The notes beneath the pieces were generated by a model. The model saw only the letters and a list, made by a program, of their open reading frames with translations. It had not been told where the DNA came from and made no database searches. The translations under genes were made by a program, and so were the position numbers. A stretch of 64,000 nucleotides of DNA from Shigella phage SP18: sequence record GQ981382, one strand, 5' to 3'. Positions within the stretch are counted from its first letter, which is position 1; each line of letters starts with the position of its first letter. This document shows, piece by piece, positions 2,763-63,110 of this stretch.

Positions 2763-2791
2763 AAAAAGGTCTCCCGAAGGAGACCAAATTT
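2763..2791 (-). terminator. CUUCGG-tetraloop hairpin terminator (GGTCTCC-ttcg-GGAGACC plus U-tract)
   Basis: perfect 7-bp inverted repeat with cgaa/ttcg loop flanked by A/T runs. Confidence 0.55.
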
Positions 2792-2943
2792 TATTCTACT
2801 TTATAGACTTGACCATACGCCATGAAAGTTTCACCTTCCCAGGTTTCGCACGTGATTGTTACAAATTCTGCAAACAAAGGCTTTTTCTCTGCCCAGAGAA
2901 AACCATATTCACCGGTAGCGAGTGTAATCCAGTATTTAGTCAT
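2791..2943 (-). CDS. small hypothetical protein (~50 aa, below ORF-track cutoff)
   Basis: ATG preceded by GGAGA Shine-Dalgarno, ends at the terminator hairpin; coordinates hand-derived. Confidence 0.35.
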   Translation of the reverse strand: MTKYWITLATGEYGFLWAEKKPLFAEFVTITCETWEGETFMAYGQVYKVE

Positions 2944-2983
2944 ATTGTCTCCTAGTAGCGGGAGAATATTCTCCCACCTCTAT

Positions 2984-6107: not shown

Positions 6108-6324
6108 GATAAGTCTCCTTCCAAAAATCTGTACCATCTTCTGATTCTTCGCGGAACAGCGCATAGCTAGGTAGTTCCGCACCTTCATACGCATACACAT
6201 AAATGATATCAGTTGTGCAAAGAAATTCATTGATATTTTTCTTAACAATCACTTTATCACTTTCAGCGGTTTCCCAGAACTCTTCAGCGGTCAGGGAAGT
6301 GGTCACACAATCTTCATTAAACAT
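6094..6324 (-). CDS. hypothetical protein
   Basis: 76 aa, ATG with GAGGAGA SD. Confidence 0.5.
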   Translation of the reverse strand: MFNEDCVTTSLTAEEFWETAESDKVIVKKNINEFLCTTDIIYVYAYEGAELPSYALFREESEDGTDFWKETYHVEI

Positions 6325-6339
6325 AATATTCTCCTCATT

Positions 6340-6359
6340 GATAGGGCAAAAACCCTATC
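6340..6359 (-). terminator. hairpin (ATAGGG-caaaaa-CCCTAT) downstream of motB
   Basis: inverted repeat between motB stop and next gene. Confidence 0.35.
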
Positions 6360-6370
6360 ATTTTTATAAT

Positions 6371-11302: not shown

Positions 11303-11349
11303 GATATTTTTCTCATCTTACGGACGATTTGATAACTCAGTATGGATTC

Positions 11350-11378
11350 ATTATACACCATCCATTGGGTGTGTACAC
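11350..11378 (-). promoter_or_regulatory. early promoter (GTGTAC -35, TATAAT -10) upstream of srd
   Basis: GTGTACacacccaatggatggtgTATAATgaatccatactgag. Confidence 0.55.
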
Positions 11379-11458
11379 TACTTTTTGCCTTTAACGCTTT
11401 TATTTTTACTGTGTATAATGGTTCTAAGGTCTTTGGCCTTTTGTCAACCCAGAATACT

Positions 11459-15616: not shown

Positions 15617-15654
15617 TATATTTTTCCTTATCAATTCATGTTGTTTGTATGTTA

Positions 15655-15680
15655 ATTATATCATATTGGTTTAAAGCATA
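15655..15680 (-). promoter_or_regulatory. candidate middle promoter (MotA box TGCTTTA plus TATAAT) upstream of gene 56
   Basis: minus-strand tatGCTTTAaaccaatatgaTATAAT; spacing about 11-12 nt. Confidence 0.3.
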
Positions 15681-15700
15681 AATACAAGAAAGGAGGATGT

Positions 15701-15898
15701 ATGCTCAAACTATCTAGTCTAATTCAAGCCATCAAAGGCAGTCGTAAGCGAACGATTCTGGTCCTTTCGATACTCTGTTTTGTTCTACTCTGGAATTTCA
15801 TTGTTGTCCCTATTGCATTGGCACATGGTGTTATATTGCCAGTCGTCGCGCTCGAATCAGTTGTAGATGTTTCACTAGCATTAATCGGCCTTATATAG
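15701..15898 (+). CDS. small hydrophobic (two-helix membrane) protein on the opposite strand
   Basis: 65 aa ORF with canonical AAGGAGG SD 6 nt upstream of ATG; sits in the 61-56 intergenic gap where T4 has dam. Confidence 0.45.
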   Translation: MLKLSSLIQAIKGSRKRTILVLSILCFVLLWNFIVVPIALAHGVILPVVALESVVDVSLALIGLI

Positions 15899-16006
15899 GT
15901 GGAACTTACTGGTTGTGCCTATCGCTGCAACACAAGGGGTGCACTTACCCCAGGTCACAATGGAACATATTCATTCCATCATCGGTTACTTTACCGGAAT
16001 CCCTTC

Positions 16007-32166: not shown

Positions 32167-32404
32167 CCTTGATACATGATTCAGCCATATGGATTAATGT
32201 CTCTGGAGTATCATCTTCCATTACATTAAAGCTAAATTCCACGGCCCAATCGGTGACTACATAGACTTTGATAAGTTGACCAGTTTCCCGGTCAGTGATA
32301 GCTTCAAACCAATACTTAATAGTATTCGGTTGATTATCGTCGTCAACCACATCACATTCGCGGATATGCTCAAGCCCCGCTTCATTAAAATCATAAAGTC
32401 TCAT
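32141..32404 (-). CDS. hypothetical acidic protein between genes 47 and 46
   Basis: 87 aa ORF with overlapping stop/start. Confidence 0.5.
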   Translation of the reverse strand: MRLYDFNEAGLEHIRECDVVDDDNQPNTIKYWFEAITDRETGQLIKVYVVTDWAVEFSFNVMEDDTPETLIHMAESCIKDAYYDEDF

Positions 32405-33420
32405 GGTTGCACCTCAAGATATAATTTGTTGGCCAATGCTTTGAGAGCTTTTGATTCTTTCTCATTGGCGTCAGGTAATGCATCGATATATTCTGCCATC
32501 ATATCTGTTAAGCGTTTTATGTCTAACTCTTCATCAGAGTCTGACGTATCAACACTGTTATCAACCTTATTGACAACACGCAATTCGTGCACACGCTTTT
32601 CTAATTCAGATTCGAACTTGGTCAGGTCTTTATCGACTTTTTCTACAATAACACGGACCGATAAGTCTTTGAAGTCGTCGTAGTTAATAGTTTCGTTTGG
32701 ATAGAAAATCTTCCGATGCCAGGTGGTTTCATTCGGAATAAATTTCATCTCTTCGGTTTCGGTATCAAATTCCCAGAACCCGCGTGGGTCGTTCTCATCA
32801 CCTGCTGTTAATGTCCATGGTGTTCCTATGTACTTAACGTTTGCAGCTTCTGAAATGGTATGGAAGTGACCAGACCAAACTTGCTTGTACTTCTTAAGGA
32901 AATCAGGCTCAAGTCCGTGGGATTTCAATCCTTTATAGAAATAAAACCCGGTTAATTCCCAGTGACCGATGCAATATTCAGCACCAGAAGTTTTGATATG
33001 TTGGTGAATGTCAGTTGCGTTCTCGTCACACATCCATGGAATCATATCAATCTGACAACCGTCAAAATCAACAGTCGTTGGCTTATCGTAGATTTTAACA
33101 TGGTCATACTTATTCAGGAGTTCAGTGATAGCATTAGGATGAATCTTATTCTTCAGATTCATGTCATGGTTCCCGACTATCGTGTGCATAGTAATTCCTG
33201 CTTCACGAAGGAGTTCCATAATCTCACGGCTGAATTCCATCGTCTTATGCGTTACGGCCTTACGGACGTCAAAAATATCGCCATATTGAATCCAGACTTT
33301 AATCCCATTCGCTTTGGAATATGCAATCGCCTGTAAAATACCATCGCGTTGAATGTTTTGAGCCCATGGGTCGTCAGCTTTGACACCTAAGTGCCAATCA
33401 CCTAAATTTAAAATTTTCAT
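32401..33420 (-). CDS. 47: recombination nuclease gp47 (Mre11/SbcD-like phosphoesterase)
   Basis: 339 aa from MKILNLGDWHLG; phosphoesterase motifs GDxHxG, GDIFD, GNHD. Confidence 0.9.
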   Translation of the reverse strand: MKILNLGDWHLGVKADDPWAQNIQRDGILQAIAYSKANGIKVWIQYGDIFDVRKAVTHKTMEFSREIMELLREAGITMHTIVGNHDMNLKNKIHPNAITELLNKYDHVKIYDKPTTVDFDGCQIDMIPWMCDENATDIHQHIKTSGAEYCIGHWELTGFYFYKGLKSHGLEPDFLKKYKQVWSGHFHTISEAANVKYIGTPWTLTAGDENDPRGFWEFDTETEEMKFIPNETTWHRKIFYPNETINYDDFKDLSVRVIVEKVDKDLTKFESELEKRVHELRVVNKVDNSVDTSDSDEELDIKRLTDMMAEYIDALPDANEKESKALKALANKLYLEVQP

Positions 33421-33563
33421 AAGCCAAGCACCGTTATCGCAATGCAAAATAAAATTATTGAAATGAACCCGTCAGGAGTGGAAAAGAATCCTATCCAACA
33501 AGCTCGTGTGAATGTATAGAATGCCATGAATAGCACGACATATCCTAAAAATAATTCCATATG
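33417..33563 (-). CDS. small hydrophobic membrane peptide (~48 aa, below cutoff)
   Basis: ATG after GAGGAGAAC SD; TGA overlaps gene 47 ATG; coordinates approximate. Confidence 0.35.
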   Translation of the reverse strand, partial: HMELFLGYVVLFMAFYTFTRACWIGFFSTPDGFISIILFCIAITVLGL

Positions 33564-33610
33564 TTCTCCTCAGTTGGTTCATTTTATCATCCCGAATATA
33601 AAGCAAAAAA

Positions 33611-33627
33611 GGAAGCACTAGGCTTCC
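33611..33627 (-). terminator. hairpin (GGAAGC-actag-GCTTCC) with flanking A/T runs
   Basis: inverted repeat in the 47-upstream region. Confidence 0.4.
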
Positions 33628-33947
33628 TTTCCAATTAATACACCGTACAGAGGTTCGTGAGAAGACCTGAACTTGATAGGCTTATAGGTAATAGTACCTT
33701 CATTTTCTGCTTTAATGCGAGCGGCTTCAAATTGAAGTATCATCTCATTTTTGTCAGATTTAATCTTATCAAAATCCGTCGAATTCGTCATTCATACAGC
33801 CTCTTAAAAATCAGGATGTTCGTCTTGAAATATATTACCCAATCGTTTTAATTCATCAGAAGTAAGAATATCTACATCATCAATAGCCATAATATGCCTC
33901 TTAAACTTTTTCGTATTCGTCTTTCATTAGCCAACCTGTCCATGTTA

Positions 33948-34148
33948 TCATCTCTGCCACCACTTCTTAAGTTGATGAGAATCAACCCAAACCTTGGCTA
34001 CAGGCTCAATCTTAAAAATACCATCAGAATATTGGCCCATCATTTTGTATTCGGTTTCGGTCTGCTTAATACAGATATTACCGTATGAGCGAAGTCTGAA
34101 AGCGGCTCCAATAAGAAGCCGTTTAAAAGGTTTATTTACTAATGCCAT
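33948..34148 (-). CDS. hypothetical protein
   Basis: 66 aa ORF. Confidence 0.4.
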   Translation of the reverse strand: MALVNKPFKRLLIGAAFRLRSYGNICIKQTETEYKMMGQYSDGIFKIEPVAKVWVDSHQLKKWWQR

Positions 34149-34443
34149 TTACGATTTCCCAAATTTGTTTGCGAGTAGAATCCCACATCAACTTAATCAG
34201 GTCTTCCGTAACGGGTTGGCGGTAAATCCCACGCAGTTTAACTAAAGCGTATTTGTATGCTTCAAAATTGTTTTCCAGCACTGCGCCTTGAGCATGCTTA
34301 TTCAGTCGTGCAATTTCACGAGCATTCTTTTTCAGAATCTTCGCTGCTTGACTGGTTGCTTCAAGTGCGTTCGCTTCTTCGAGACGTTCCTGTGCTTCTT
34401 CAATCTGCTTATCGGTCAGTTGAGAAATATCTGGAGCTTGCAT
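34132..34443 (-). CDS. hypothetical protein
   Basis: 103 aa ORF. Confidence 0.5.
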   Translation of the reverse strand: MQAPDISQLTDKQIEEAQERLEEANALEATSQAAKILKKNAREIARLNKHAQGAVLENNFEAYKYALVKLRGIYRQPVTEDLIKLMWDSTRKQIWEIVNGISK

Positions 34444-34444
34444 A

Positions 34445-34696
34445 TTAATCCTTGGGAGTTAACTCAATTGTAAAATATAGATTAGCATTATCCACATGAT
34501 AACGGTAATCAACGTTATTATCCGGTGAAGTAAATTCCAGATTCCGGACGTTTAAAGGGTCGATATCAATTGGAAGACCTTTTATGTCTCGCAGATAAAG
34601 TTTAATGAAATATGGGAGCGCAGTAAAGTCTTCCTCGATTTTATCTAAAAAATCGGTAATATCAAATTGATGTTTCATATAAAAAATCCAAATCAC
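34445..34696 (-). CDS. hypothetical protein
   Basis: 83 aa ORF abutting gene 55. Confidence 0.45.
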
Positions 34697-35219
34697 CTTC
34701 TTTATCTTTGGCGCTCTTATCAGACCCTGGCGCTTTAACTAAAGAGGATTCGTACTGTGTCATTTTGTCATAGATGTCCTGGATAAATGTTTCATCAGCC
34801 AGAGCCACCATATCGTCATCACGTGAATCGTATACGTTATGGACGAAGTAGCTATATTTCTTTGCCATTTCTTTACGTTCTTTTTTGATACGCTGAACGA
34901 AAGCATTGAAGCAAGCCATTGTTATGTAAGCATGTGGATTATCGTATTTTGTTTCGTCGAAGTTGTGAAGACCTTTTATTGCGGCCTCAATTCCGTCTGC
35001 TATCATTTCTTGCTTCCAGGATTGGGTATATCCGGAGAAGTTGAAACGTTTGCTAAGACCTTCGGCTATAAGCATAATCGCCAGACCAATAACATCGTTC
35101 TGGCGAATAATTTTGTTCGGGTCGGTGTTCGCATTCAGCTTCTGTTTCCACTCCGAAATAGCTTTCAAAAGCTCTTTATTATTTACATAGTTATTCTTGG
35201 TTAATTTAATTTCGTTCAT
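34662..35219 (-). CDS. 55: late-transcription sigma factor gp55
   Basis: 185 aa, same length as T4 gp55; position downstream of 47 region. Confidence 0.8.
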
Positions 35220-35267
35220 ATCGCCTCACTTAGTATATGAATATTATATCATCCTTAATACAAAGCA

Positions 35268-35534
35268 TTAGCGAAGTAAACAGTACGCCTGAAAGACCTT
35301 CTCCATAATTGCCTTAAATTCATGGATGTCAATATAAGGGATAACCTCGGCATCACTAATGAATTCCATCAGACGGTCATGCTCGTTGCGGTATTGTCCT
35401 TCATTCAACATGCCGATATGGGACTCCCACGAGCCATACCCTTCTACGTGTGGGAAGAATGTTATTTTCATGAATTCATCCACCCAAAACGTTCCCAGGT
35501 CCTGGATGGATATCATTGTATGATTGATGTGCAT
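35268..35534 (-). CDS. hypothetical protein
   Basis: 88 aa ORF. Confidence 0.45.
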   Translation of the reverse strand: MHINHTMISIQDLGTFWVDEFMKITFFPHVEGYGSWESHIGMLNEGQYRNEHDRLMEFISDAEVIPYIDIHEFKAIMEKVFQAYCLLR

Positions 35535-35821
35535 CAGTACACCAATTGAGCAGCTTCTAAAACATCATCAAGCTTATCAAACTGGTCAATATAATCAATC
35601 CCACCAACTTCATCTTTAGCATACAACCAATATTGGTGGAATTCATATTCAATAATAAAGTGGTCACCTTCAATCTGGAGAACCCCATCACCATTAAATT
35701 GAACTGCATAACCCGTAAAGCGGACATCATTCAGGAGTTCTTCTTTCATAGTAATCATTTCCAAGTTTTTATCGTAATTAGAGAGTTTTATTTTAATCAT
35801 TAAGATAATCCTCAAATTCAT
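35534..35821 (-). CDS. hypothetical protein
   Basis: 95 aa ORF. Confidence 0.45.
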   Translation of the reverse strand: MNLRIILMIKIKLSNYDKNLEMITMKEELLNDVRFTGYAVQFNGDGVLQIEGDHFIIEYEFHQYWLYAKDEVGGIDYIDQFDKLDDVLEAAQLVY

Positions 35822-36047
35822 TTAATGTCATACCTTCGTTCCATGCTGTTTTCAGGTGCGGCATTCTGTTATACGTCGGCTCCGAGCTTATAGGAAATAT
35901 CCTGAAATCGCGATTACTTCCACCAAGCATATTGGCAGCTTTTATAATAGTTTCACTTTTATTCATTATAGTTGTACGTTGAACACCATGAATAAATGGA
36001 CCTTTAAAAACAATTATGGCTGATACACCTTCTGGTAAATTATTCAT
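35793..36047 (-). CDS. hypothetical protein
   Basis: 84 aa ORF. Confidence 0.45.
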   Translation of the reverse strand: MNNLPEGVSAIIVFKGPFIHGVQRTTIMNKSETIIKAANMLGGSNRDFRIFPISSEPTYNRMPHLKTAWNEGMTLNEFEDYLND

Positions 36048-36370
36048 TTCGCACCCTTAATAATTTTCAGGTCAACAAAACCTTTCTTGCGCTGGGAATT
36101 CATACGCTTGATAGCTTTATCAGAAACTTCTTTGTTTTCACGCGGAAGCGGCAGACCAAACGCTACTACATCAAATTCATTCAGGATATACTGGACAAGG
36201 CTTTCACGAATACGCGCTTTACCCATTGTCTGACCTTCTGCAATAATCAACTTCTGTACATCGCCTTCCCACTGGTCCAGAATCTCAGGGGTAACGAAAC
36301 CAGATTTCATCAGAGTGTTAACTTTAGCAAATGCGAAATTAGTGATGATGTTAGTGATAGATGCAGTCAT
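36044..36370 (-). CDS. hypothetical protein
   Basis: 108 aa ORF. Confidence 0.5.
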   Translation of the reverse strand: MTASITNIITNFAFAKVNTLMKSGFVTPEILDQWEGDVQKLIIAEGQTMGKARIRESLVQYILNEFDVVAFGLPLPRENKEVSDKAIKRMNSQRKKGFVDLKIIKGAK

Positions 36371-36442
36371 GATATATTCCTCAGTCTCATTAAATTAAAA
36401 TTTTATTATCCTAGGGTCATTATACCATGACCCCGTTGGTTT

Positions 36443-36688
36443 TTACTGCGCTTTAGCGCCTTTCCAGCCTTCGTACATCATTGCAACGGATAAAAGCAAT
36501 GCGCCTTCGCATGCAGCATACTTATTATTCCAAAACCAGTTCAGAAAAACTTCATCCTCAATGCCAGAGTGTTTCATGTTCTGGAAAAATTTGGCACGTT
36601 CTTCTGCAATACGTTGTGACAATTTAGATTGTGGATTCATTTTAAATTTTCCAGTTACCGTTTTCATCAATAAATTCAATCCAGTCAT
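36443..36688 (-). CDS. hypothetical protein
   Basis: 81 aa ORF. Confidence 0.45.
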   Translation of the reverse strand: MTGLNLLMKTVTGKFKMNPQSKLSQRIAEERAKFFQNMKHSGIEDEVFLNWFWNNKYAACEGALLLSVAMMYEGWKGAKAQ

Positions 36689-36773
36689 TTACTGACCACT
36701 TGGTTGTATCGCCTTTTGGAGCAGAATTTAAAGCGTATAATCCTTGTTTAAAAAGCATTCGTTTGATATTCAT
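36642..36773 (-). CDS. small hypothetical protein
   Basis: track ORF extends upstream into neighbour; ATG at MNIKRMLFKQ gives about 43 aa. Confidence 0.3.
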   Translation of the reverse strand: MNIKRMLFKQGLYALNSAPKGDTTKWSVNDWIEFIDENGNWKI

Positions 36774-36780
36774 GTTTTCC

Positions 36781-37074
36781 TCAGCTGTAACGATAGCACT
36801 CGTTTGATTTACGTTTTGCAACACGGTGAGAAGTATTATAATCAAAATCATCCTCAACGTATACATCTTTTTTCAACTGACGAACTTCTTTACGCAGTTG
36901 ACGATTCATCTCATTCTTGACTTCTGAATCAACGCCACGCATACGCTTCCATTTGTCTGAACGGAAGATATTTTCTTCAACTTGTTCCTGACTTACACCA
37001 TCAGGCGCCTGACGACGCCCTGAATAATAAAAATCTTTTACAGACAATTCTTTGCGACGAATAGTTTTACCCAT
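36781..37074 (-). CDS. hypothetical basic protein
   Basis: 97 aa ORF. Confidence 0.45.
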   Translation of the reverse strand: MGKTIRRKELSVKDFYYSGRRQAPDGVSQEQVEENIFRSDKWKRMRGVDSEVKNEMNRQLRKEVRQLKKDVYVEDDFDYNTSHRVAKRKSNECYRYS

Positions 37075-37076
37075 AG

Positions 37077-37331
37077 TTACCTCAGCAGTTTGTATCCAAT
37101 AAGCTTTTTAATGTACTGGATATCTTTGACATCCAAATCCAACTTAAGGTCTTTCAGACGGTCACCCAGGGTCAAAAAGGTTACATGTTTCCAATTCTTC
37201 ACTGAGCAACAATAAGTCTTAGGCCCATTTGCAATTTCAATATTTTTATCTGTGACGGTGATAAAAATCAAACGTTCATCATCAAGATTAAGGGTGGCGA
37301 CATTTTTCATTGAATGTAATTTCAGGCTCAT
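37077..37331 (-). CDS. hypothetical protein
   Basis: 84 aa ORF. Confidence 0.45.
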   Translation of the reverse strand: MSLKLHSMKNVATLNLDDERLIFITVTDKNIEIANGPKTYCCSVKNWKHVTFLTLGDRLKDLKLDLDVKDIQYIKKLIGYKLLR

Positions 37332-37510
37332 AATTTAGGTCCTTTTGCAACTGTATTGAACAAGCTACGGTCACACACCATCAACGGAGCATCAGGCCAT
37401 TTCAAAGGACGATACCATACATCTTGGTCCGTCACTTTGGTTACTTGCACAGGATAGCCATTTACTGAATAATACTGGTCGGCTTTAATTTCTTTATCTT
37501 CAATAACCAT
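37328..37510 (-). CDS. small hypothetical protein
   Basis: about 60 aa after trimming promoter leader (STTDEENKM). Confidence 0.45.
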   Translation of the reverse strand: MVIEDKEIKADQYYSVNGYPVQVTKVTDQDVWYRPLKWPDAPLMVCDRSLFNTVAKGPKL

Positions 37511-37541
37511 TTTGTTTTCCTCATCAGTAGTTGATGGGATA

Positions 37542-37571
37542 ATGATACACCGTTCAAAGGGGCTTGTACAC
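37542..37571 (-). promoter_or_regulatory. early promoter (GTGTAC -35, TATCAT -10) with ATCAACTACTGATGAGG leader
   Basis: recurrent cassette immediately downstream of nrdH. Confidence 0.5.
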
Positions 37572-37577
37572 CCCTTT

Positions 37578-37895
37578 TTAATCTTCAATTAAGTCCTGGT
37601 CATACCCCAGGGATATCAGTTTTGTTTTAAAGGCAGGAATATTTGTCATTTTTTCATCATTGACAAAAATCACTGGGTAACGAATGTTAAGGGTAGGATA
37701 TCCAGCACGCTTAGCCAAAGACACGATTAATGGCCTGTCATAAGCGATTTCAGAGCCTTGTTTGTTAAGGACTGAATAGAATGTATAAGGAAGGTTTAAG
37801 GAGCCCAGAAGGCTCCTGACGTGCATACAACCTGGGCATCGACCGACTTCTTCGGGGATACCATAGATTTCAATCTTAGTCGAGTTTTGGTCCAC
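37578..37895 (-). CDS. nrdH: glutaredoxin-like protein NrdH
   Basis: 105 aa; CPGC redox motif; adjacent to nrdG/nrdD as in T4. Confidence 0.7.
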   Translation of the reverse strand: MDQNSTKIEIYGIPEEVGRCPGCMHVRSLLGSLNLPYTFYSVLNKQGSEIAYDRPLIVSLAKRAGYPTLNIRYPVIFVNDEKMTNIPAFKTKLISLGYDQDLIED

Positions 37896-38175
37896 AGGAA
37901 ATCACTCCTTGGTAGTTCCAGGTTTTAATAACTTCTTCATCGCTGGCAGTTGCGTACGGGACATAAACCTGAATAAGGAAACCCGTGTCATCGAAAGAGA
38001 AATAAACCGTCGGTTTGATTCCATGAATCTCAGACAATGCATAGATGTCTTTAAGGTCTTCTTCCTTACCGACAAAGAATTCCGGGTCCAGGTCACAGTC
38101 GTGGAAGTACCATTCATCACCGAACTTGTCCCATGCGGTCCAATTAGTAGCTACATATTCTTCAAAACGTTTCAT
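37876..38175 (-). CDS. hypothetical acidic protein
   Basis: 99 aa ORF. Confidence 0.5.
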   Translation of the reverse strand: MKRFEEYVATNWTAWDKFGDEWYFHDCDLDPEFFVGKEEDLKDIYALSEIHGIKPTVYFSFDDTGFLIQVYVPYATASDEEVIKTWNYQGVISCGPKLD

Positions 38176-38411
38176 TCTTTCACCTTCAGCATTTTTGCAA
38201 TGGTACTATGAATAGTCTGGATTCTTTTGTTGAATTCAGAGCTTTCGAGGCCAGGATTGGTGCTTAACCAACCGATAATAACAAACAGCAAACCAAACGG
38301 GATAGCCAGAATAAGCAGACAAACGATGAACAACACAAGCGTTATGTTTGCCAGAATATCTGCTGTAGCATTACGAAATTTATTCATATTTACCCTTAAT
38401 TGATTAACCAA
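38172..38411 (-). CDS. small membrane protein
   Basis: 79 aa with one strongly hydrophobic segment. Confidence 0.5.
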   Translation of the reverse strand: MVNQLRVNMNKFRNATADILANITLVLFIVCLLILAIPFGLLFVIIGWLSTNPGLESSEFNKRIQTIHSTIAKMLKVKE

Positions 38412-38501
38412 GCATTGATAAACACTAAACTATACTGCGAATAAAATTCTGGACCAAAACGAAAAATCATATCATTTATAGTATCCATAATGTAATTCAA
38501 T

Positions 38502-38972
38502 TTAATCATGTTTCCACACCCCATCGGTATTTGACCAAAGTCGCTGATTATCTGACCCTCGCCACAGTTTTTTGGTCGGAAGATTTTTCTCATACTTCCC
38601 ATCAATAATAACATCAACATATTTAAGCATTTCTAGTTGTTTAATATCTTCAAACTTATATCCCGTCCACATCCAAATGCTTTTATTGGGATAAAGATTT
38701 TTAATAGTTTGAACCACAGAGTGAATAACATCTCGGTTATCAGGATAGAGAGGGTCTCCTCCGGTTATAGTTAATCCTTCTATATAATCATTATTCAAAC
38801 ATTCAATTAATTGTTCTAGTGTTTTACCAGTAAATGGAACACCATTTCTAGCATTCCATGTTGATTTATTATAACACCCTTCGCATTTATGCAAACAACC
38901 TGTAACGAAAAGAACGACCCTACAACCAGGGCCATTCACAAAATCACAAGGATAAATTCTATCATAATTCAT
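38502..38972 (-). CDS. nrdG: anaerobic ribonucleotide reductase activating protein NrdG (radical SAM)
   Basis: 156 aa as T4 NrdG; CxxxCxxC radical-SAM cluster motif (CLHKCEGC). Confidence 0.85.
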   Translation of the reverse strand: MNYDRIYPCDFVNGPGCRVVLFVTGCLHKCEGCYNKSTWNARNGVPFTGKTLEQLIECLNNDYIEGLTITGGDPLYPDNRDVIHSVVQTIKNLYPNKSIWMWTGYKFEDIKQLEMLKYVDVIIDGKYEKNLPTKKLWRGSDNQRLWSNTDGVWKHD

Positions 38973-40786: not shown

Positions 40787-41256
40787 TTTAAACTCTTTCT
40801 AAGCTGCTTCTTAAATGAAGCCATTAATTGTGTTTTGGTGTCAGATTCATTATAAGTCATACCATTCAAAAGCATTTCCCGAATCATTTCTTCTTTTCCC
40901 AGGCGACCGAACTCTTTGGCTTTGTCTGTTACAAAATTGGGGTGAATATTGTTTTCGGTATAATCAGATTTCAGATAGACAAGCAAACTCTCTAACCATT
41001 CCAGGTAGTCAACATCGCGACTTTTTAGACCCGAACGGCTGAACTTATGCTTCATTTGTCCTTCTGTTCCATTGCACAGATTGCATAGTAACCCGCGAAC
41101 CTTACCGGCTTTTGGTCCGTTCAATTCGTGGTCATGGTCAAGATGGTTGGCCTGAACATCAGAGTCCAAATCACGGTGGCAAATTGGACACTTACCAGCT
41201 TGTGCATCATAAAGTTTTTGTTTTTCTTCTTTGTATAATTTGCCAGTCAACAACAT
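40783..41256 (-). CDS. 49: endonuclease VII (Holliday junction resolvase) gp49
   Basis: 157 aa as T4 endo VII; N-terminal Cys zinc site and His-rich nuclease motif (HLDHDHELNG). Confidence 0.85.
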   Translation of the reverse strand: MLLTGKLYKEEKQKLYDAQAGKCPICHRDLDSDVQANHLDHDHELNGPKAGKVRGLLCNLCNGTEGQMKHKFSRSGLKSRDVDYLEWLESLLVYLKSDYTENNIHPNFVTDKAKEFGRLGKEEMIREMLLNGMTYNESDTKTQLMASFKKQLRKSLK

Positions 41257-41261
41257 AATAA

Positions 41262-41290
41262 AACCCTTACCATTATTAGATAAGGGTATT
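41262..41290 (-). promoter_or_regulatory. hairpin sequestering the gene 49 Shine-Dalgarno (ACCCTTA-loop-TAAGGGT)
   Basis: 7-bp perfect inverted repeat whose 3' arm (TAAGGGT) lies 6-12 nt upstream of the gene 49 ATG. Confidence 0.5.
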
Positions 41291-41386
41291 TATTAATATC
41301 CTAATAGTTTAGCAGTGCAACTTAGCACTAACAACAATCCGAATAAAGCAACTCCGGCCCAAAATACCGTAATAAGAGCATCCATA

Positions 41387-41563
41387 TCAGACCCCGTAGA
41401 ACGAGCGATGCAAACGTTTAAATTGACGAATCATCTTTTTAGTAGGACGGGTATATAATCCTACACAGGTGGCCATAAACTGGTCAGTAGGGCTTCCTTT
41501 GATAAGAAGTTTCCAGACCTTGTCACCGTTTAACTTTTCGGTATAGACTAATGCAGTTTTCAT
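41387..41563 (-). CDS. small basic hypothetical protein (~58 aa, below cutoff)
   Basis: ATG overlapping upstream stop (TAATG); hand-derived. Confidence 0.35.
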   Translation of the reverse strand: MKTALVYTEKLNGDKVWKLLIKGSPTDQFMATCVGLYTRPTKKMIRQFKRLHRSFYGV

Positions 41564-41832
41564 TAAACAATCCTAAAACAAGGATAATGGCATTCAACGT
41601 TACCATTATCAATTATCATATACTCAGTGATACAGGTCCATGACCCTTCAATTTCTATGGTATCAAAAAGGTATTCATCTGTTTCAACAACGTCCCAAAC
41701 ATTACATTCAACGTCAGGGTCAAAACGTTGTCTTAACGCATGGATAACATCACCATTTTTAAATCCTGCGTCTTGAAGCTCTTTCATAAAACCTGATTGA
41801 GCAGCATGAATATTAACAATTTCTAAAAACAT
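41563..41832 (-). CDS. hypothetical protein
   Basis: 89 aa ORF. Confidence 0.5.
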   Translation of the reverse strand: MFLEIVNIHAAQSGFMKELQDAGFKNGDVIHALRQRFDPDVECNVWDVVETDEYLFDTIEIEGSWTCITEYMIIDNGNVECHYPCFRIV

Positions 41833-42005
41833 TAAAAGACCTCATCAGAAAAGCGGAGTTGGGCTTCAAGCCAATGAATGTAGTCAGCTGCAGCAAAAAT
41901 TAAAGCAGATTCTTCATCGGGTAACTTACGAGAATCTGACAATTCGTAAAGCGAATGCTCAATCAGACGGCCTTTATGGCGGCCAACTTCAATTTTGGTA
42001 CTCAT
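41832..42005 (-). CDS. small hypothetical protein (~57 aa, below cutoff)
   Basis: stop overlaps downstream ATG (TAATG); hand-derived. Confidence 0.3.
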   Translation of the reverse strand: MSTKIEVGRHKGRLIEHSLYELSDSRKLPDEESALIFAAADYIHWLEAQLRFSDEVF

Positions 42006-42443: not shown

Positions 42444-42748
42444 TGGTCACTCCAATAGCTTGATACTTCAAAATCAGGCTCGCCGTTTTCCCAGTACCAA
42501 GGACCAACCGGATGCCAATCACCATGCTTATCTTCTTCATATTCTTCAGATTCAAGCCCAACGTATTGCCATTGGACTTCATAAGCAGTGCCGCCGATTA
42601 CAACAGTGTTCTCACCATATGGATTAGCCACAGCAAAGTCAATACCTTCTGCTTTAGCCAGCCAAACCATATATTCGTATAGCTTATATTCCAGGTCATC
42701 TTCGGTACCATCACCTAGAAAAATGGTTTGTTCGTTTAATTCAATCAT
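42440..42748 (-). CDS. hypothetical acidic protein
   Basis: 102 aa ORF. Confidence 0.5.
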   Translation of the reverse strand: MIELNEQTIFLGDGTEDDLEYKLYEYMVWLAKAEGIDFAVANPYGENTVVIGGTAYEVQWQYVGLESEEYEEDKHGDWHPVGPWYWENGEPDFEVSSYWSDQ

Positions 42749-43081
42749 AATTCCACCATAAATTCAAATAGCTGGTCACGTACACAAGTATCAGTCCAAC
42801 CCCATTCGTTGGCTTCTTCTTTTAACCAATCCGGGAGATTTGCCAATACGGTTTCTTTACTAGGCGCAGGAGTATCAAACTCTCTTGCGCAGGTTTCATA
42901 AGCTTTATCAAATTCGGTCATTTAAAGTTCCAGAATGAAGCACCAACCAGAAATAAAGGCCAACAAATCATAGACGTCAGCCACCAGCAAAAGTCACCTG
43001 CACCGAAATCATCTAATTTAGCTAGGGTCTTAGCATAACCAATACCGATGATAAGATACAAAACACCCAACAATAATTCAA

Positions 43082-51574: not shown

Positions 51575-51777
51575 TATTCCACCACATATGATAATGAGAA
51601 AATTGCTGATGAAAGATGGGTAGCATCTTCTTCACACAGTTCAAATGGAGCTTTCTGTAAGAGTTCAACCACTTCTTCATCAGTGGCACTGTCCATAAAG
51701 ATTGCATAATCATTAAGATAGATAACAACCTCATCACCAGTATTAACTGCATCAATCTTGATATTTTTAATTCTCAT
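51574..51777 (-). CDS. small hypothetical acidic protein
   Basis: 67 aa immediately downstream of promoter cassette. Confidence 0.5.
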   Translation of the reverse strand: MRIKNIKIDAVNTGDEVVIYLNDYAIFMDSATDEEVVELLQKAPFELCEEDATHLSSAIFSLSYVVE

Positions 51778-51805
51778 TGTGTTCTCCTCAGTAGTTGATG
51801 GGATA

Positions 51806-51835
51806 ATAGTACACCCTTTTTATGGTGTTGTAAAC
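51806..51835 (-). promoter_or_regulatory. early promoter (GTTTAC -35, TACTAT -10), near-identical to cassette at 20.05 kb
   Basis: GGTTTACaacaccataaaaagggtgTACTATtatcccatcaactactgaggag. Confidence 0.55.
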
Positions 51836-51878
51836 CCCCTAAATGAAAAAAGGTCCACCCGAAGGCAGACCTTTTGAA

Positions 51879-57569: not shown

Positions 57570-57730
57570 AATTGTCTCTTAGTTGGTGGGGCCGTTCCTT
57601 GGCACATAATTCATCCATGTATCCGTATGTAAACCCTTTACCGCACTTGGGCTCGACCTTATTACAGGTAGGGAAAGGTCCATCACTCAGAGGACGCGAC
57701 GTTCATGAGGAGAGGGCCGGCTTGCCTTTA

Positions 57731-61678: not shown

Positions 61679-61903
61679 TCAGTATTCTTCATCATATTCA
61701 AAGTCTTCATCAAACTCGGGTTCCAGAGAAATTTCTTCTTCTGGGTGGAATTCACAAGGGAAATATTCCACTTCACCACAATCGGCGTCATAGGACTGGA
61801 AATCAATTTGGATTACGGTTTCGGATACAACAATAACTTCAGCAACCAAGTCACCTGCAATTTCCATTCCAACTTTAACATCTTTAGCTTTGATAGTATT
61901 CAT
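61679..61903 (-). CDS. small acidic hypothetical protein
   Basis: about 74 aa from MNTIKAKD following GGAGAATAAA leader. Confidence 0.5.
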   Translation of the reverse strand: MNTIKAKDVKVGMEIAGDLVAEVIVVSETVIQIDFQSYDADCGEVEYFPCEFHPEEEISLEPEFDEDFEYDEEY

Positions 61904-61937
61904 TTTATTCTCCAATTTGGTAACTCAGTATGGAATC

Positions 61938-61967
61938 ATTATGCACTGACTCCATACTGATGTACAC
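61938..61967 (-). promoter_or_regulatory. early promoter (GTGTAC -35, CATAAT -10) with ATACTGAGTTACC leader
   Basis: recurrent cassette. Confidence 0.55.
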
Positions 61968-61969
61968 AC

Positions 61970-62929
61970 TTATTTTGTGAAAGGACGAATTAAATGTTGG
62001 TTAGCCTTAAAGCGTTTAACATAGTCTTCGCGCCCCAGGGTGTTGTACATATTAACCACTTCCTGGTAATGTTCCCAGGCATACTCACGGAACCATCCAG
62101 ACGTAATGGAGGTGCAGACTTTTTCCAGCGCAATATGGAAGCTCACAGATGGAGAGATATTGAACTCATTAGGAACCTGCGAACGCTCCAGAGCGAGCAC
62201 ACATGCTTCTTCATAAACCCCTGCCAGTTTAATAACATCAGGGAGCGCTTCAAATTTTTCACGCGAGGTCATGACTTCTGAATCATCCTTCATATAGAAC
62301 TTATATGCAGGCTTATCAGCAAGCGCCACGGCCTCGTGGATGGAGTCATGGTCAAGGGTATAGATTGTATCATTAAAGAAAGTTTTCTTGCCCACGTCTA
62401 GTTTAGGGTGACTGTATGACAGTGTTTCTGTCTGACGATGCAGCATGATTTTCTGCAGTTCATCATTAAGAACAATACCCTTATTGCGAAGGTAATTAAT
62501 ATGACTCATGGTCTTCAGGAAGAATGGATTGTTCTTCAGGTAACGATGAGACAATTTGATTGCCAAACAAATATCAGGGGTCGCCCAGTAAAAACCAGAT
62601 AGACGGTCTCTCTGAATATTTGCCTTCGCATATTTGAGCAGACGATAACTGGAGGTAAAATCTTCGTCTTGAAGCTCATCAGTCAACTCACGAACACTTG
62701 TCAGTGCGCGGACGATGTACGCTTCAAAATAGGTTTCTTTACCATTGTGCATACATTTAAAAGCTTGAACATCTGGGTTATCCACATGCACGTGCTGCCC
62801 CATCATCTGGGTTTTAAAACTGTTCCAAGAACCCTGGTCAGCGATAAAGTCCCAATCAGAGTTTTCAATTTTCTGACTTTCAATCAGACCAGCGTTATGT
62901 AATGCACGAGAACCAATAACTAACATCAT
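61970..62929 (-). CDS. hypothetical protein (319 aa)
   Basis: long ORF; no confidently recognised motif. Confidence 0.55.
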   Translation of the reverse strand: MMLVIGSRALHNAGLIESQKIENSDWDFIADQGSWNSFKTQMMGQHVHVDNPDVQAFKCMHNGKETYFEAYIVRALTSVRELTDELQDEDFTSSYRLLKYAKANIQRDRLSGFYWATPDICLAIKLSHRYLKNNPFFLKTMSHINYLRNKGIVLNDELQKIMLHRQTETLSYSHPKLDVGKKTFFNDTIYTLDHDSIHEAVALADKPAYKFYMKDDSEVMTSREKFEALPDVIKLAGVYEEACVLALERSQVPNEFNISPSVSFHIALEKVCTSITSGWFREYAWEHYQEVVNMYNTLGREDYVKRFKANQHLIRPFTK

Positions 62930-62942
62930 AATATTTTCCTCA

Positions 62943-63110
62943 TTAGTAAAGACGAGTTACTTCATATTTTCCAAGTGCCGATTTTTTCGCTTCAATTCGT
63001 GAGGCAGCAAGATTGGCGGCCTCTAGTGAAGAAAATTGAACCACTTGAGAAGTATTCTGTCTTACTCCGCCTTGCGGGTGAGTGACAAAAACAATAAGAA
63101 CATTATACAT
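62943..63110 (-). CDS. small hypothetical protein (~55 aa, below cutoff)
   Basis: ATG after GAGGA SD; stop abuts next gene SD; hand-derived. Confidence 0.4.
   Translation of the reverse strand: MYNVLIVFVTHPQGGVRQNTSQVVQFSSLEAANLAASRIEAKKSALGKYEVTRLY

Follow-up and report, generated by a model that had tools for sequence, protein, structure and literature searches.

The small genes of phage T4 are among the closest described counterparts of the ORFs considered here. In the T4 annotation, gene 47.1 (36444..36584), a predicted membrane protein, precedes gene 47 (35428..36447), and the P47 start site is at position 36576 (PMC2988021). Middle promoters activated through MotA have a box, (a/t)(a/t)(a/t)TGCTTtA, and a -10 element, TAtaaT, separated by 12 +/- 1 bp (PMC2988021). 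A GGAG motif at T4 ORF 47.1 is cleaved by RegB in vivo (PMC1702504), and the region is therefore transcribed in infected cells. According to T4 omics data (PMC9697503 supplement), 47.1 is in an early RNA class and gp47.1 has no protein-level class; a-gt.2 and 49.1 have a proteome-based class, which is 'early-RNA_late-Protein' for a-gt.2. No functional study of gp47.1 was found in the literature, nor, among the 15 top-ranked matches, any T4 paper that profiled ribosomes with regard to small or unannotated proteins. Shuffling of PeSL (promoter-early stem-loop) cassettes has been described for hyperplastic regions of T4-type phages (PMC2839356, PMC4122927).

The window, a stretch of 64,000 nucleotides from Shigella phage SP18 (GQ981382), covers the arm of early and middle genes between rIIA and the e region; the phage is a T4-like coliphage of the genus Gaprivervirus. 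The window is 96-98% identical to the Gaprivervirus genomes EAWsc9, VR20 and DK-13. Almost all of its genes are on the minus strand, where they follow each other head to tail in operon-like strings, most with their own Shine-Dalgarno (SD) sequence and many joined by ATGA or TAATG. A preliminary description had proposed seven small ORFs in gaps of the 60-aa ORF track. All seven were present, on the minus strand, with translations that agreed with those reported (Table 1). The reported gaps very probably consist of short protein-coding genes, ordinary for a T4-like phage of the genus Gaprivervirus and hidden only by the 60-aa limit of the track: family matches, T4 and VR7 annotation and intact frames agree on this point. 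These genes are real but already known, nearly all being catalogued in T4 and its relatives. That they were "missed" is a property of the track threshold, not of the state of knowledge.

Table 1. Position and description of the small genes and neighbouring elements in the SP18 window.
Feature	Position	Strand	Description
50-aa gene	2791..2943	-	Between rIIA.1 and gene 39; equivalent of VR7ORF004c (VR7 2797..2949)
Gene 47	32401..33420	-	Mre11/SbcD-like nuclease subunit, 339 aa from ATG at 33420; in ORF list, VR7 and T4 annotation
Reported span, 5' to 3'	33417-33950	-	a-gt.3, 28-aa ORF (status uncertain), a-gt.2, terminator hairpin, MotA-type promoter, SD GAGGAG, 47.1, gene 47
47.1 ortholog	33417..33560	-	47 aa, two hydrophobic helices; TGA stop overlaps gene 47 ATG (ATGA, 33417-33420)
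Shine-Dalgarno GAGGAG	33566..33571	-	5 nt upstream of 47.1 ATG; read from sequence
Predicted MotA-box middle promoter	33581..33607	-	TTTGCTTTA-12 nt-TAAAAT; positional counterpart of T4 P47
Intrinsic-terminator-like hairpin	33606..33632	-	11 bp stem and T run; a-gt.2 stop codon in loop
a-gt.2 ortholog	33618..33791	-	57 aa
28-aa ORF	33804..33890	-	Acidic; AAGAGG SD; coding status uncertain; absent from the preliminary description
Gene 49 start hairpin core	41263..41287	-	Gene 49 SD and AUG paired with end of upstream ORF
30-aa hydrophobic ORF	41293..41385	-	Single helix; inside 94-nt indel
DUF7279 gene	41387..41563	-	58 aa; equivalent of VR7ORF082c
PinA-like protein	41832..42005	-	57 aa; C-terminal part of PinA only; equivalent of VR7ORF084c
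55-aa gene	62943..63110	-	Equivalent of VR7ORF137c (VR7 62309..62476)

Some details required correction. The ORF reported as 48 aa at 33417-33563 exists but was taken one codon too far; it ends at 33560, because the codon at 33563..33561, which reads CAT, precedes the ATG. The one placed at ~33620-33790, with about 57 aa, was found with the exact span given in Table 1. SD sequences had been claimed throughout. Canonical cores precede 47.1 (GAGGAG), a-gt.2 (AAGAGG), 2791..2943 (AGGAG), 41387..41563 (AGGA) and 62943..63110 (GAGGA), whereas the 41293..41385 and 41832..42005 ORFs have only a weak G-rich stretch. The stop-start overlaps were seen as described, with ATGA at 47.1/gene 47 and TAATG at both orf89/41387..41563 and 41832..42005/orf89; the junction of the 41387..41563 and 41293..41385 ORFs reads TGAtATG. 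Strong hydrophobicity was also borne out, by GRAVY values of 1.63 for 47.1 and 1.72 for the 41293..41385 ORF. The assertion that every gap contains small ORFs holds only for the gaps that had been translated, and several others have no small minus-strand ORF: no credible one was found in gaps 6249-6370, 11303-11458, 51756-51878, 57570-57730 and 61807-61969. Gap 15635-16006 contains a plus-strand gene. Within the reported span, positions 33561-33617 are regulatory (terminator hairpin and MotA-type promoter), not coding. Scanning the entire window for Rfam families and tRNAs gave no match, and catalogued RNA genes are accordingly absent from the gaps.

A PHROG search yielded full-length matches for six of the seven ORFs, with E-values from 1e-29 to 1e-43: phrog_4369 for 2791..2943 (4e-29), phrog_6693 for 47.1 (3.5e-31, positions 1-47 of 47), phrog_2140 for a-gt.2 (8e-32), phrog_3272 for 41387..41563 (1e-33), phrog_9092 for 41832..42005 (6e-43) and phrog_20278 for 62943..63110 (3e-43). 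Ten further gap ORFs also had full-length matches. Pfam gathering scores were passed by three ORFs, a-gt.2 (PF17588, DUF5486; 71.3 bits, cut-off 27, profile positions 2-53 of 53), 41387..41563 (PF23945, DUF7279; 60.2 bits, cut-off 24.5, positions 1-53 of 53) and, marginally, 41832..42005 (PF10465, Inhibitor_I24; 28.0 bits, cut-off 27). In IMG/VR, only 2-9 loci matched each ORF, and most of these belonged to the same isolate genomes.

Conservation of reading frames in related phages had been proposed as a check. Frames were intact in the relatives of the 47.1, a-gt.2, 41387..41563 and 41832..42005 ORFs. The substitution test (Nei-Gojobori counts) covered these four and the 30-aa and 28-aa ORFs. 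In the four, synonymous changes exceeded non-synonymous ones in most comparisons, and purifying selection was detected in all four where substitutions suffice; the synonymous excess was missing in some of the closest comparisons, with very few changes. A codon-usage log-odds model, trained on long genes, separated soluble small genes from controls and was unusable for hydrophobic peptides. Scores of the a-gt.2, 2791..2943, 41387..41563, 41832..42005 and 62943..63110 ORFs fell within the true-gene range, and those of the hydrophobic 47.1, 42.1 and 41293..41385 ORFs were no better than non-coding controls. Given this codon score, the coding status of 47.1, as read from its sequence, is saved only by conservation. 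Homology and sequence signals together suggest that the small ORFs of SP18 are translated.

By tblastn, 47.1 was found in 600 phage records, including T4 (82% identity, adjoining gene 47), and the homolog of JS10 carries the name gp47.1. The SP18 and T4 genes are alike in size (46-47 aa) and in their two hydrophobic helices, with residues 17-39 identical. Both directly adjoin gene 47 on its upstream side, overlap it by 4 nt (ATGA) and have a terminator hairpin and a MotA-box promoter in front of them. Divergence between them was mostly synonymous (pS 0.60, pN 0.15). Hydrophobic stretches at residues 1-18 and 26-47 predict a membrane protein, and the AF2 model is a helical hairpin (helices 2-24 and 29-44, pLDDT 73). 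In contrast, the start region has been replaced in SP18: it is longer by about 21 nt, which contain a stronger SD (GAGGAG), and the protein begins with MEL instead of MI. Because of this replacement, the SP18 ATG is downstream of the predicted middle-promoter start, near 33574, whereas the T4 P47 start is inside 47.1. The genes a-gt and mobB of T4 are also absent upstream in SP18.

Gene 47 has no canonical SD of its own, the upstream ACGGTGCTTGGCTT-ATG being devoid of an AGGAG-type core, and may be translated largely by coupling to 47.1. With the P47 start site inside 47.1, gene 47 is translatable in T4 without 47.1, which weakens the case for coupling. In VR7, the precise deletion of 47.1 brings the same GAGGAG SD directly before gene 47.

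The a-gt.2 gene is annotated in VR7 and T4, and its frame is intact in 15 relatives. It shares with T4 a-gt.2 the sequence family and the place between a-gt.3 and gene 47, but the T4 protein is longer (63 aa versus 57 aa), and its N-terminal extension (..KDEHP..) is detached in SP18 and encoded upstream, by a mini-ORF of its own or by the 28-aa ORF. A terminator scan, complemented by a computed RNA fold, found one site, the 33606..33632 hairpin, for 0.3 expected; this hairpin is conserved in VR7, EAWsc9 and pEC-M719-6WT.2. Scanning for the MotA motif gave six matches on the minus strand and none on the plus strand. At 33607..33581 the box, the 12-nt spacing and the -10 element are all present, and the site probably acts as a middle promoter in SP18. 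A sigma-70 promoter scan of 33300-34200 revealed no excess of sites and no minus-strand early-type match.

With tblastn, 2791..2943 was matched in 275 records, at identities falling to about 40%; those of the listed matches that give a genome position were about 2.5-3.7 kb from the genome start. The 62943..63110 ORF was found in 31 phage records. In vB_EcoM-VR7 (HM563683), ORF004c, ORF082c, ORF084c and ORF137c (50, 58, 57 and 55 aa) occur in the same order as their SP18 equivalents, with near-identical sequences; unlike in SP18, 47.1 and both the 30-aa and 28-aa ORFs are missing from VR7, owing to precise indels.

One alternative is that the AT-rich spacers really serve regulation, through promoters, terminators and RNA structures, and that the small ORFs in them are open by chance. 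Part of the reported span is indeed regulatory, several other gaps have only promoter-like motifs, and at 39% GC open frames of 30 codons are not uncommon. The 60-aa track leaves 18 gaps that are 100 nt or longer, and these were compared with 300 first-order Markov simulations. On the minus strand they contain nine ORFs, counted from the first ATG, that reach 45 aa and have an SD core, versus 0.21 expected (simulation maximum, two); the plus strand gave a single one, itself an annotated gene. Together with the full-length family matches for six ORFs out of seven, the purifying selection in four and the annotation in T4 and VR7, this excess makes chance frames improbable. As a general explanation they were rejected, and they survive only for the 30-aa and 28-aa ORFs, which have no family and few substitutions, the former also overlapping a structured region (fold z-score -2.6).

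Alternatively, the 41832..42005, 41387..41563 and 28-aa ORFs could be decaying pseudogene fragments of larger genes (pin, a longer a-gt.2) split by insertions. T4 PinA, a 161-aa inhibitor of the host Lon protease, is encoded in the same neighbourhood as the 41832..42005 protein, between 49.1 and gene 49. The SP18 protein is a short form of 57 aa without the N-terminal ~100 residues. It aligns, at 41% identity, only to PinA residues 102-145, and its Pfam match spans only profile positions 88-136 of 136, so that the PinA domain is incomplete. The last 17 residues of PinA (144-160) are matched by the C-terminal 17 aa of the separate 41387..41563 protein, as if pin had been interrupted. Likewise, the 28-aa ORF ends in DEHPDF, a match to the N-terminal extension found in T4 a-gt.2, and in most relatives only an 8-codon remnant, MKDEHPDF, is found. 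Against decay, 41832..42005 forms its own 57-aa PHROG family, matched at full length, and is under strong purifying selection, with 15-18 synonymous versus 0-2 non-synonymous changes in four comparisons. The 41387..41563 ORF is a full-length DUF7279 member with a pN/pS of about 0.1-0.2, and both ORFs have start signals and frames intact across two genera. A fragment origin for the group is thus extremely unlikely; for the 28-aa ORF alone, the remnant reading stays plausible.

The reading of the gaps as ordinary genes is least secure for the two shortest ORFs. The 28-aa ORF is within an indel of ~98 nt flanked by AAGACGAA repeats; it was found in only seven phage records and is absent from nine IMG/VR relatives. 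Its codon log-odds, 0.42 per codon, is above that of all 373 negative-control ORFs. It had no PHROG or Pfam match, the peptide was not found in an exact protein-cluster look-up, and its Nei-Gojobori counts (2 synonymous, 1 non-synonymous) comprise too few changes. The 30-aa ORF was found in 19 phage records, is a CDS in UPEC01 and vB_YenM_P8, and had an intact frame in 13 of the 13 related sequences read. Its distribution was taken from DNA searches, tblastn of the peptide against the phage collection having returned nothing, probably through length and the low-complexity filter. The exact cluster look-up placed this peptide in only two NCBI records, and no PHROG or Pfam family matched. Substitutions were again too few (1 synonymous, 2-4 non-synonymous), and third codon positions made up five of the nine variable sites among the 13 sequences, which is only suggestive. 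That the two are genuine lineage-restricted micro-protein genes is possible, though somewhat doubtful. Each is carried on a cassette of ~95 nt (in 19 and 7 sequenced phages, respectively), and in most of those records it is unannotated.

The TAATAA stop of the 30-aa ORF is in the 5' arm of a hairpin covering the gene 49 start. The core of this hairpin (Table 1) was a terminator-like scan match, has a fold z-score of -2.6 and is conserved in T4. Translation termination at this stop could open the hairpin, coupling the ORF to endonuclease VII synthesis.

Among genomes otherwise 95-98% identical, 47.1, the 30-aa ORF, the 28-aa ORF and orf89 are each either present or absent, and small genes may be gained and lost as cassettes through recombination at short repeats. 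This resembles PeSL systems, in which small genes of unknown function come and go as cassettes beside composite terminator/promoter motifs. However, in the SP18 stem-loop and promoter pair (33632..33581) the promoter is a middle one of the MotA type and not an early one, and the indel junctions are very short repeats (TATG, AAGACGAA), not PeSL copies; a PeSL cassette boundary at this site was accordingly rejected. The small ORFs would be translated in the early and middle stages of infection, on read-through transcripts and on middle ones. Their products may have accessory roles, or serve in host takeover or at the membrane, which is also the assumption made for unnamed T4 early ORFs, and one of them, as seen above, resembles part of the Lon inhibitor PinA.

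The value of these observations is mainly one of annotation hygiene, since a 60-aa ORF filter makes many T4-like genes of less than 60 aa look like intergenic DNA. The small membrane peptides (47.1, 42.1 and the 30-aa ORF) are reasonable targets for small-protein studies, although their existence will not surprise a specialist. Public annotation of small T4-like genes is uneven: of the records sampled, only about one in three lists a separate 47.1 CDS, and in one record gene 47 has been extended spuriously by 54 aa at its N-terminus, overprinting 47.1.

The preliminary description had held that intergenic gaps in the window are filled with sub-60-aa ORFs bearing SD sequences and stop-start overlaps, and its seven listed ORFs were all found on the minus strand with the translations it gave (see table). 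The first, 47.1, is real and 47 aa long, but the end reported for it lay one codon too far, before the ATG; the second is the 57-aa a-gt.2. Stop-start junctions were as claimed: ATGA (47.1/gene 47), TAATG (F/orf89 and orf89/D, orf89 being an 89-aa ORF between F and D) and TGAtATG (D/E). A canonical SD core precedes 47.1, a-gt.2, C, D and G, whereas E and F have a weak G-rich stretch only.

Features of the 33417-33950 region, in 5' to 3' order, and the other listed small ORFs
Feature	Coordinates	Strand	Remark
a-gt.3	34148..33948	minus	first in order
Spacer, 57 nt		minus	between a-gt.3 and the 28-aa ORF
28-aa ORF	33890..33804	minus	AAGAGG in front; acidic
a-gt.2	33791..33618	minus	Pfam DUF5486, 71 bits; named a-gt.2 in VR7
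Terminator-like hairpin	33632..33606	minus	a-gt.2 stop codon in loop
MotA-box motif, TTTGCTTTA-12 nt-TAAAAT	33607..33581	minus	counterpart in position of T4 P47
SD GAGGAG	33571..33566	minus	followed by 47.1, then gene 47
47.1	33417..33560	minus	ortholog of T4 gene 47.1
C	2791..2943	minus	VR7ORF004c
D	41387..41563	minus	DUF7279; equivalent to VR7ORF082c
E	41293..41385	minus	30 aa, hydrophobic
F	41832..42005	minus	VR7ORF084c; PinA-like
G	62943..63110	minus	VR7ORF137c

Gaps were listed from a rebuilt minus-strand ORF track with a 60-aa threshold. Of the 18 true gaps measuring 100 nt or more, 12 held at least one well-formed minus-strand ORF, but six of the 18 did not (6249-6370, 11303-11458, 15635-16006, 51756-51878, 57570-57730 and 61807-61969), so that not every gap is filled in this way. 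One of the six, 15635-16006, contains a plus-strand gene. Three others, each longer than 150 nt (11303-11458, 57570-57730 and 61807-61969), are probably early-promoter regions, because each has a sigma-70-like promoter motif in coding-strand orientation (TGTACA-16 nt-TATAAT at 11377..11350 in the first).

A strict count, limited to ORFs of 45 aa or more that start at the first ATG and have a 4-mer SD core 3-12 nt before it, gave nine in the gaps on the minus strand versus 0.21 expected (300 Markov simulations, maximum 2). The small gap ORFs are correctly observed and well beyond chance. The plus strand gave a single such ORF, a member of phrog_2024 annotated in VR7, and all ORFs taken as genes lie on the minus strand except one. 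No other plus-strand gap gene was convincing; this one (15701-15898, between genes 56 and 61, equivalent to VR7ORF033w) encodes a strongly hydrophobic 65-aa product behind an AGGAGG SD.

Family membership and conservation support the reading of these ORFs as real small genes. Full-length PHROG matches were obtained for six of the seven (E-values 1e-29 to 1e-43), and ten further gap ORFs, unlisted in the preliminary description, all match PHROG families; orthologs of 39.2, modA.2, modA.4, 61.1, 42.1 and 49.1 are among them. C occurs in 275 records, with identity down to ~40%, and lies ~2.5-3.7 kb from the genome start among the listed matches that give a genome position; G was found in 31 records. 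Reading frames were intact in relatives. For 47.1, a-gt.2, D and F, synonymous changes exceeded non-synonymous ones in most comparisons, the exceptions being some closest pairs with very few changes; F was the clearest, with 15-18 synonymous versus 0-2 non-synonymous changes in four comparisons. The soluble small ORFs had codon log-odds inside the span seen for true 60-100-aa genes and higher than those of almost all 373 control ORFs; the hydrophobic ORFs scored like non-coding sequence, a limitation of the model. The length threshold did hide these ORFs from the ORF track, but they were not missed by the field, being annotated in T4 and VR7 and contained in PHROGs and Pfam. Between 49.3 and a 55-aa membrane ORF, a 58-aa ORF (42745-42921) that has no counterpart in VR7 matches the much longer family phrog_9444 at its C-terminal part only (positions 240-295 of 310).

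The gene order of the window (rIIA, 39, dda, modA/B, 61, 41, uvsX, 43, 45, 46, 47, 55, nrdD, 49, nrdC, tk, regB, e) is that of phages vB_EcoM-VR7 and T4. By megablast, 608 phage records match 32400-35300, the top ones being the Gaprivervirus genomes EAWsc9, VR20, DK-13 and TH44 (96-98% identity). Homologues of 47.1 adjoin gene 47 in 600 phage records (tblastn), including T4 at 82% identity, where 47.1 (36444..36584) is annotated as 'hypothetical predicted membrane protein'; the JS10 homologue has the same name. Against T4, pS was 0.60 and pN 0.15, and residues 17-39 are identical. A two-helix hairpin is predicted from hydropathy and an AF2 model of moderate confidence. In T4-infected cells RegB moderately cleaves a GGAG motif at ORF 47.1, and therefore the region is transcribed (PMC1702504). 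A multi-omics supplement places T4 47.1 in an early RNA class with no protein class, and a-gt.2, a-gt.3 and 49.1 in the class 'early-RNA_late-Protein' (PMC9697503).

In the window as in T4, 47.1 overlaps gene 47 by 4 nt, and gene 47 has no canonical SD, as in the genomes retaining 47.1. A deletion running exactly from one TATG repeat to another has removed 47.1 in VR7, VR25 and VR26 (window 33417-33571; VR7 extract 1519-1551) and places the strong 47.1 SD, GAGGAG, directly before the gene 47 ATG. Because gene 47 lacks its own canonical SD and receives that of 47.1 where 47.1 is deleted, we infer that its translation would normally proceed, at least in part, through coupling to 47.1. Such coupling cannot be obligatory, given the position of the T4 P47 start site (36576), inside T4 47.1. 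The window differs from T4 here, since ~21 extra nt put the start of 47.1 downstream of the site where transcription is predicted to begin. The MotA-box motif agrees with the published consensus and spacing, and its six matches in the window all fall on the coding strand. The window lacks a-gt (alpha-glucosyltransferase) and mobB, the T4 genes located between a-gt.2 and 47.1 (33561-33800 versus T4 36585-38730); here the terminator/promoter module and then 47.1 come directly after a-gt.2. In pEC-M719-6WT.2 (extract positions 501-1682), gene 47 has an annotated length of 393 aa; its frame is opened upstream by a TGA-to-CGA change, and the gene caller's 54-aa N-terminal extension, which overprints 47.1, is probably an annotation artefact.

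Two ORFs, both candidate genes, are without a family. E lies inside a 94-nt indel found in 19 Gaprivervirus and Dhakavirus records and missing from VR7-type genomes. UPEC01 and vB_YenM_P8 annotate it, and none of nine other records opened does. Its frame was unbroken in each of 13 related sequences; substitutions in the hydrophobic core were conservative (A to V, C to Y), in counts too low for a test of selection. Its TAATAA stop, at which the preceding ORF D ends in VR7, is within the 5' arm of a hairpin (fold z-score -2.6), also conserved in T4, that pairs with the gene 49 SD and AUG. In this long hairpin (41250-41300, minus strand) the start of gene 49, which encodes endonuclease VII, is paired with the final codons and TAATAA of the upstream ORF; within its 5' arm, TAATAAATA is similar to the late-promoter motif of T4, TATAAATA.

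The 28-aa ORF, in a ~98-nt indel between AAGACGAA repeats, was found in only seven other records and in none of nine IMG/VR relatives; most relatives have only an 8-codon version in its place. The six residues at its end, DEHPDF, have their counterpart in the N-terminal extension of T4 a-gt.2. Rearrangement may have produced this ORF as a by-product, although its codon score resembles that of genes. Three related ~27-30-nt units (ATGAAAGACGAATACGAAAAAGTTTAAGAGG, ..AAGACGAACATCCTGATTTTTAAGAGG and ATGAATGACGAATTCGACGGATTTTGATAAG; 33785-33960, minus strand) are found ahead of the a-gt.2 start and across it, and give rise to the 8-codon mini-ORFs MKDEYEKV and MNDEFDGF, whose stops overlap SD-like AAGAGG motifs.

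The similarity of F to PinA is confined to the C-terminal part (profile positions 88-136 in Pfam; 41% identity to T4 PinA residues 102-145), and the end of T4 PinA (residues 144-160) matches the last 17 residues of the 58-aa D. Judged from these alignments, T4 PinA looks like a mosaic of F and D (window 41387-42005; T4 extract 598-1083). In IME08, F is joined directly to D without orf89. This pattern is evidence of cassette shuffling, in line with the plasticity described for T4-type hyperplastic regions (PMC4122927), although very short repeats form the junctions here and the local pair of terminator and promoter belongs to the middle, not the early, type.
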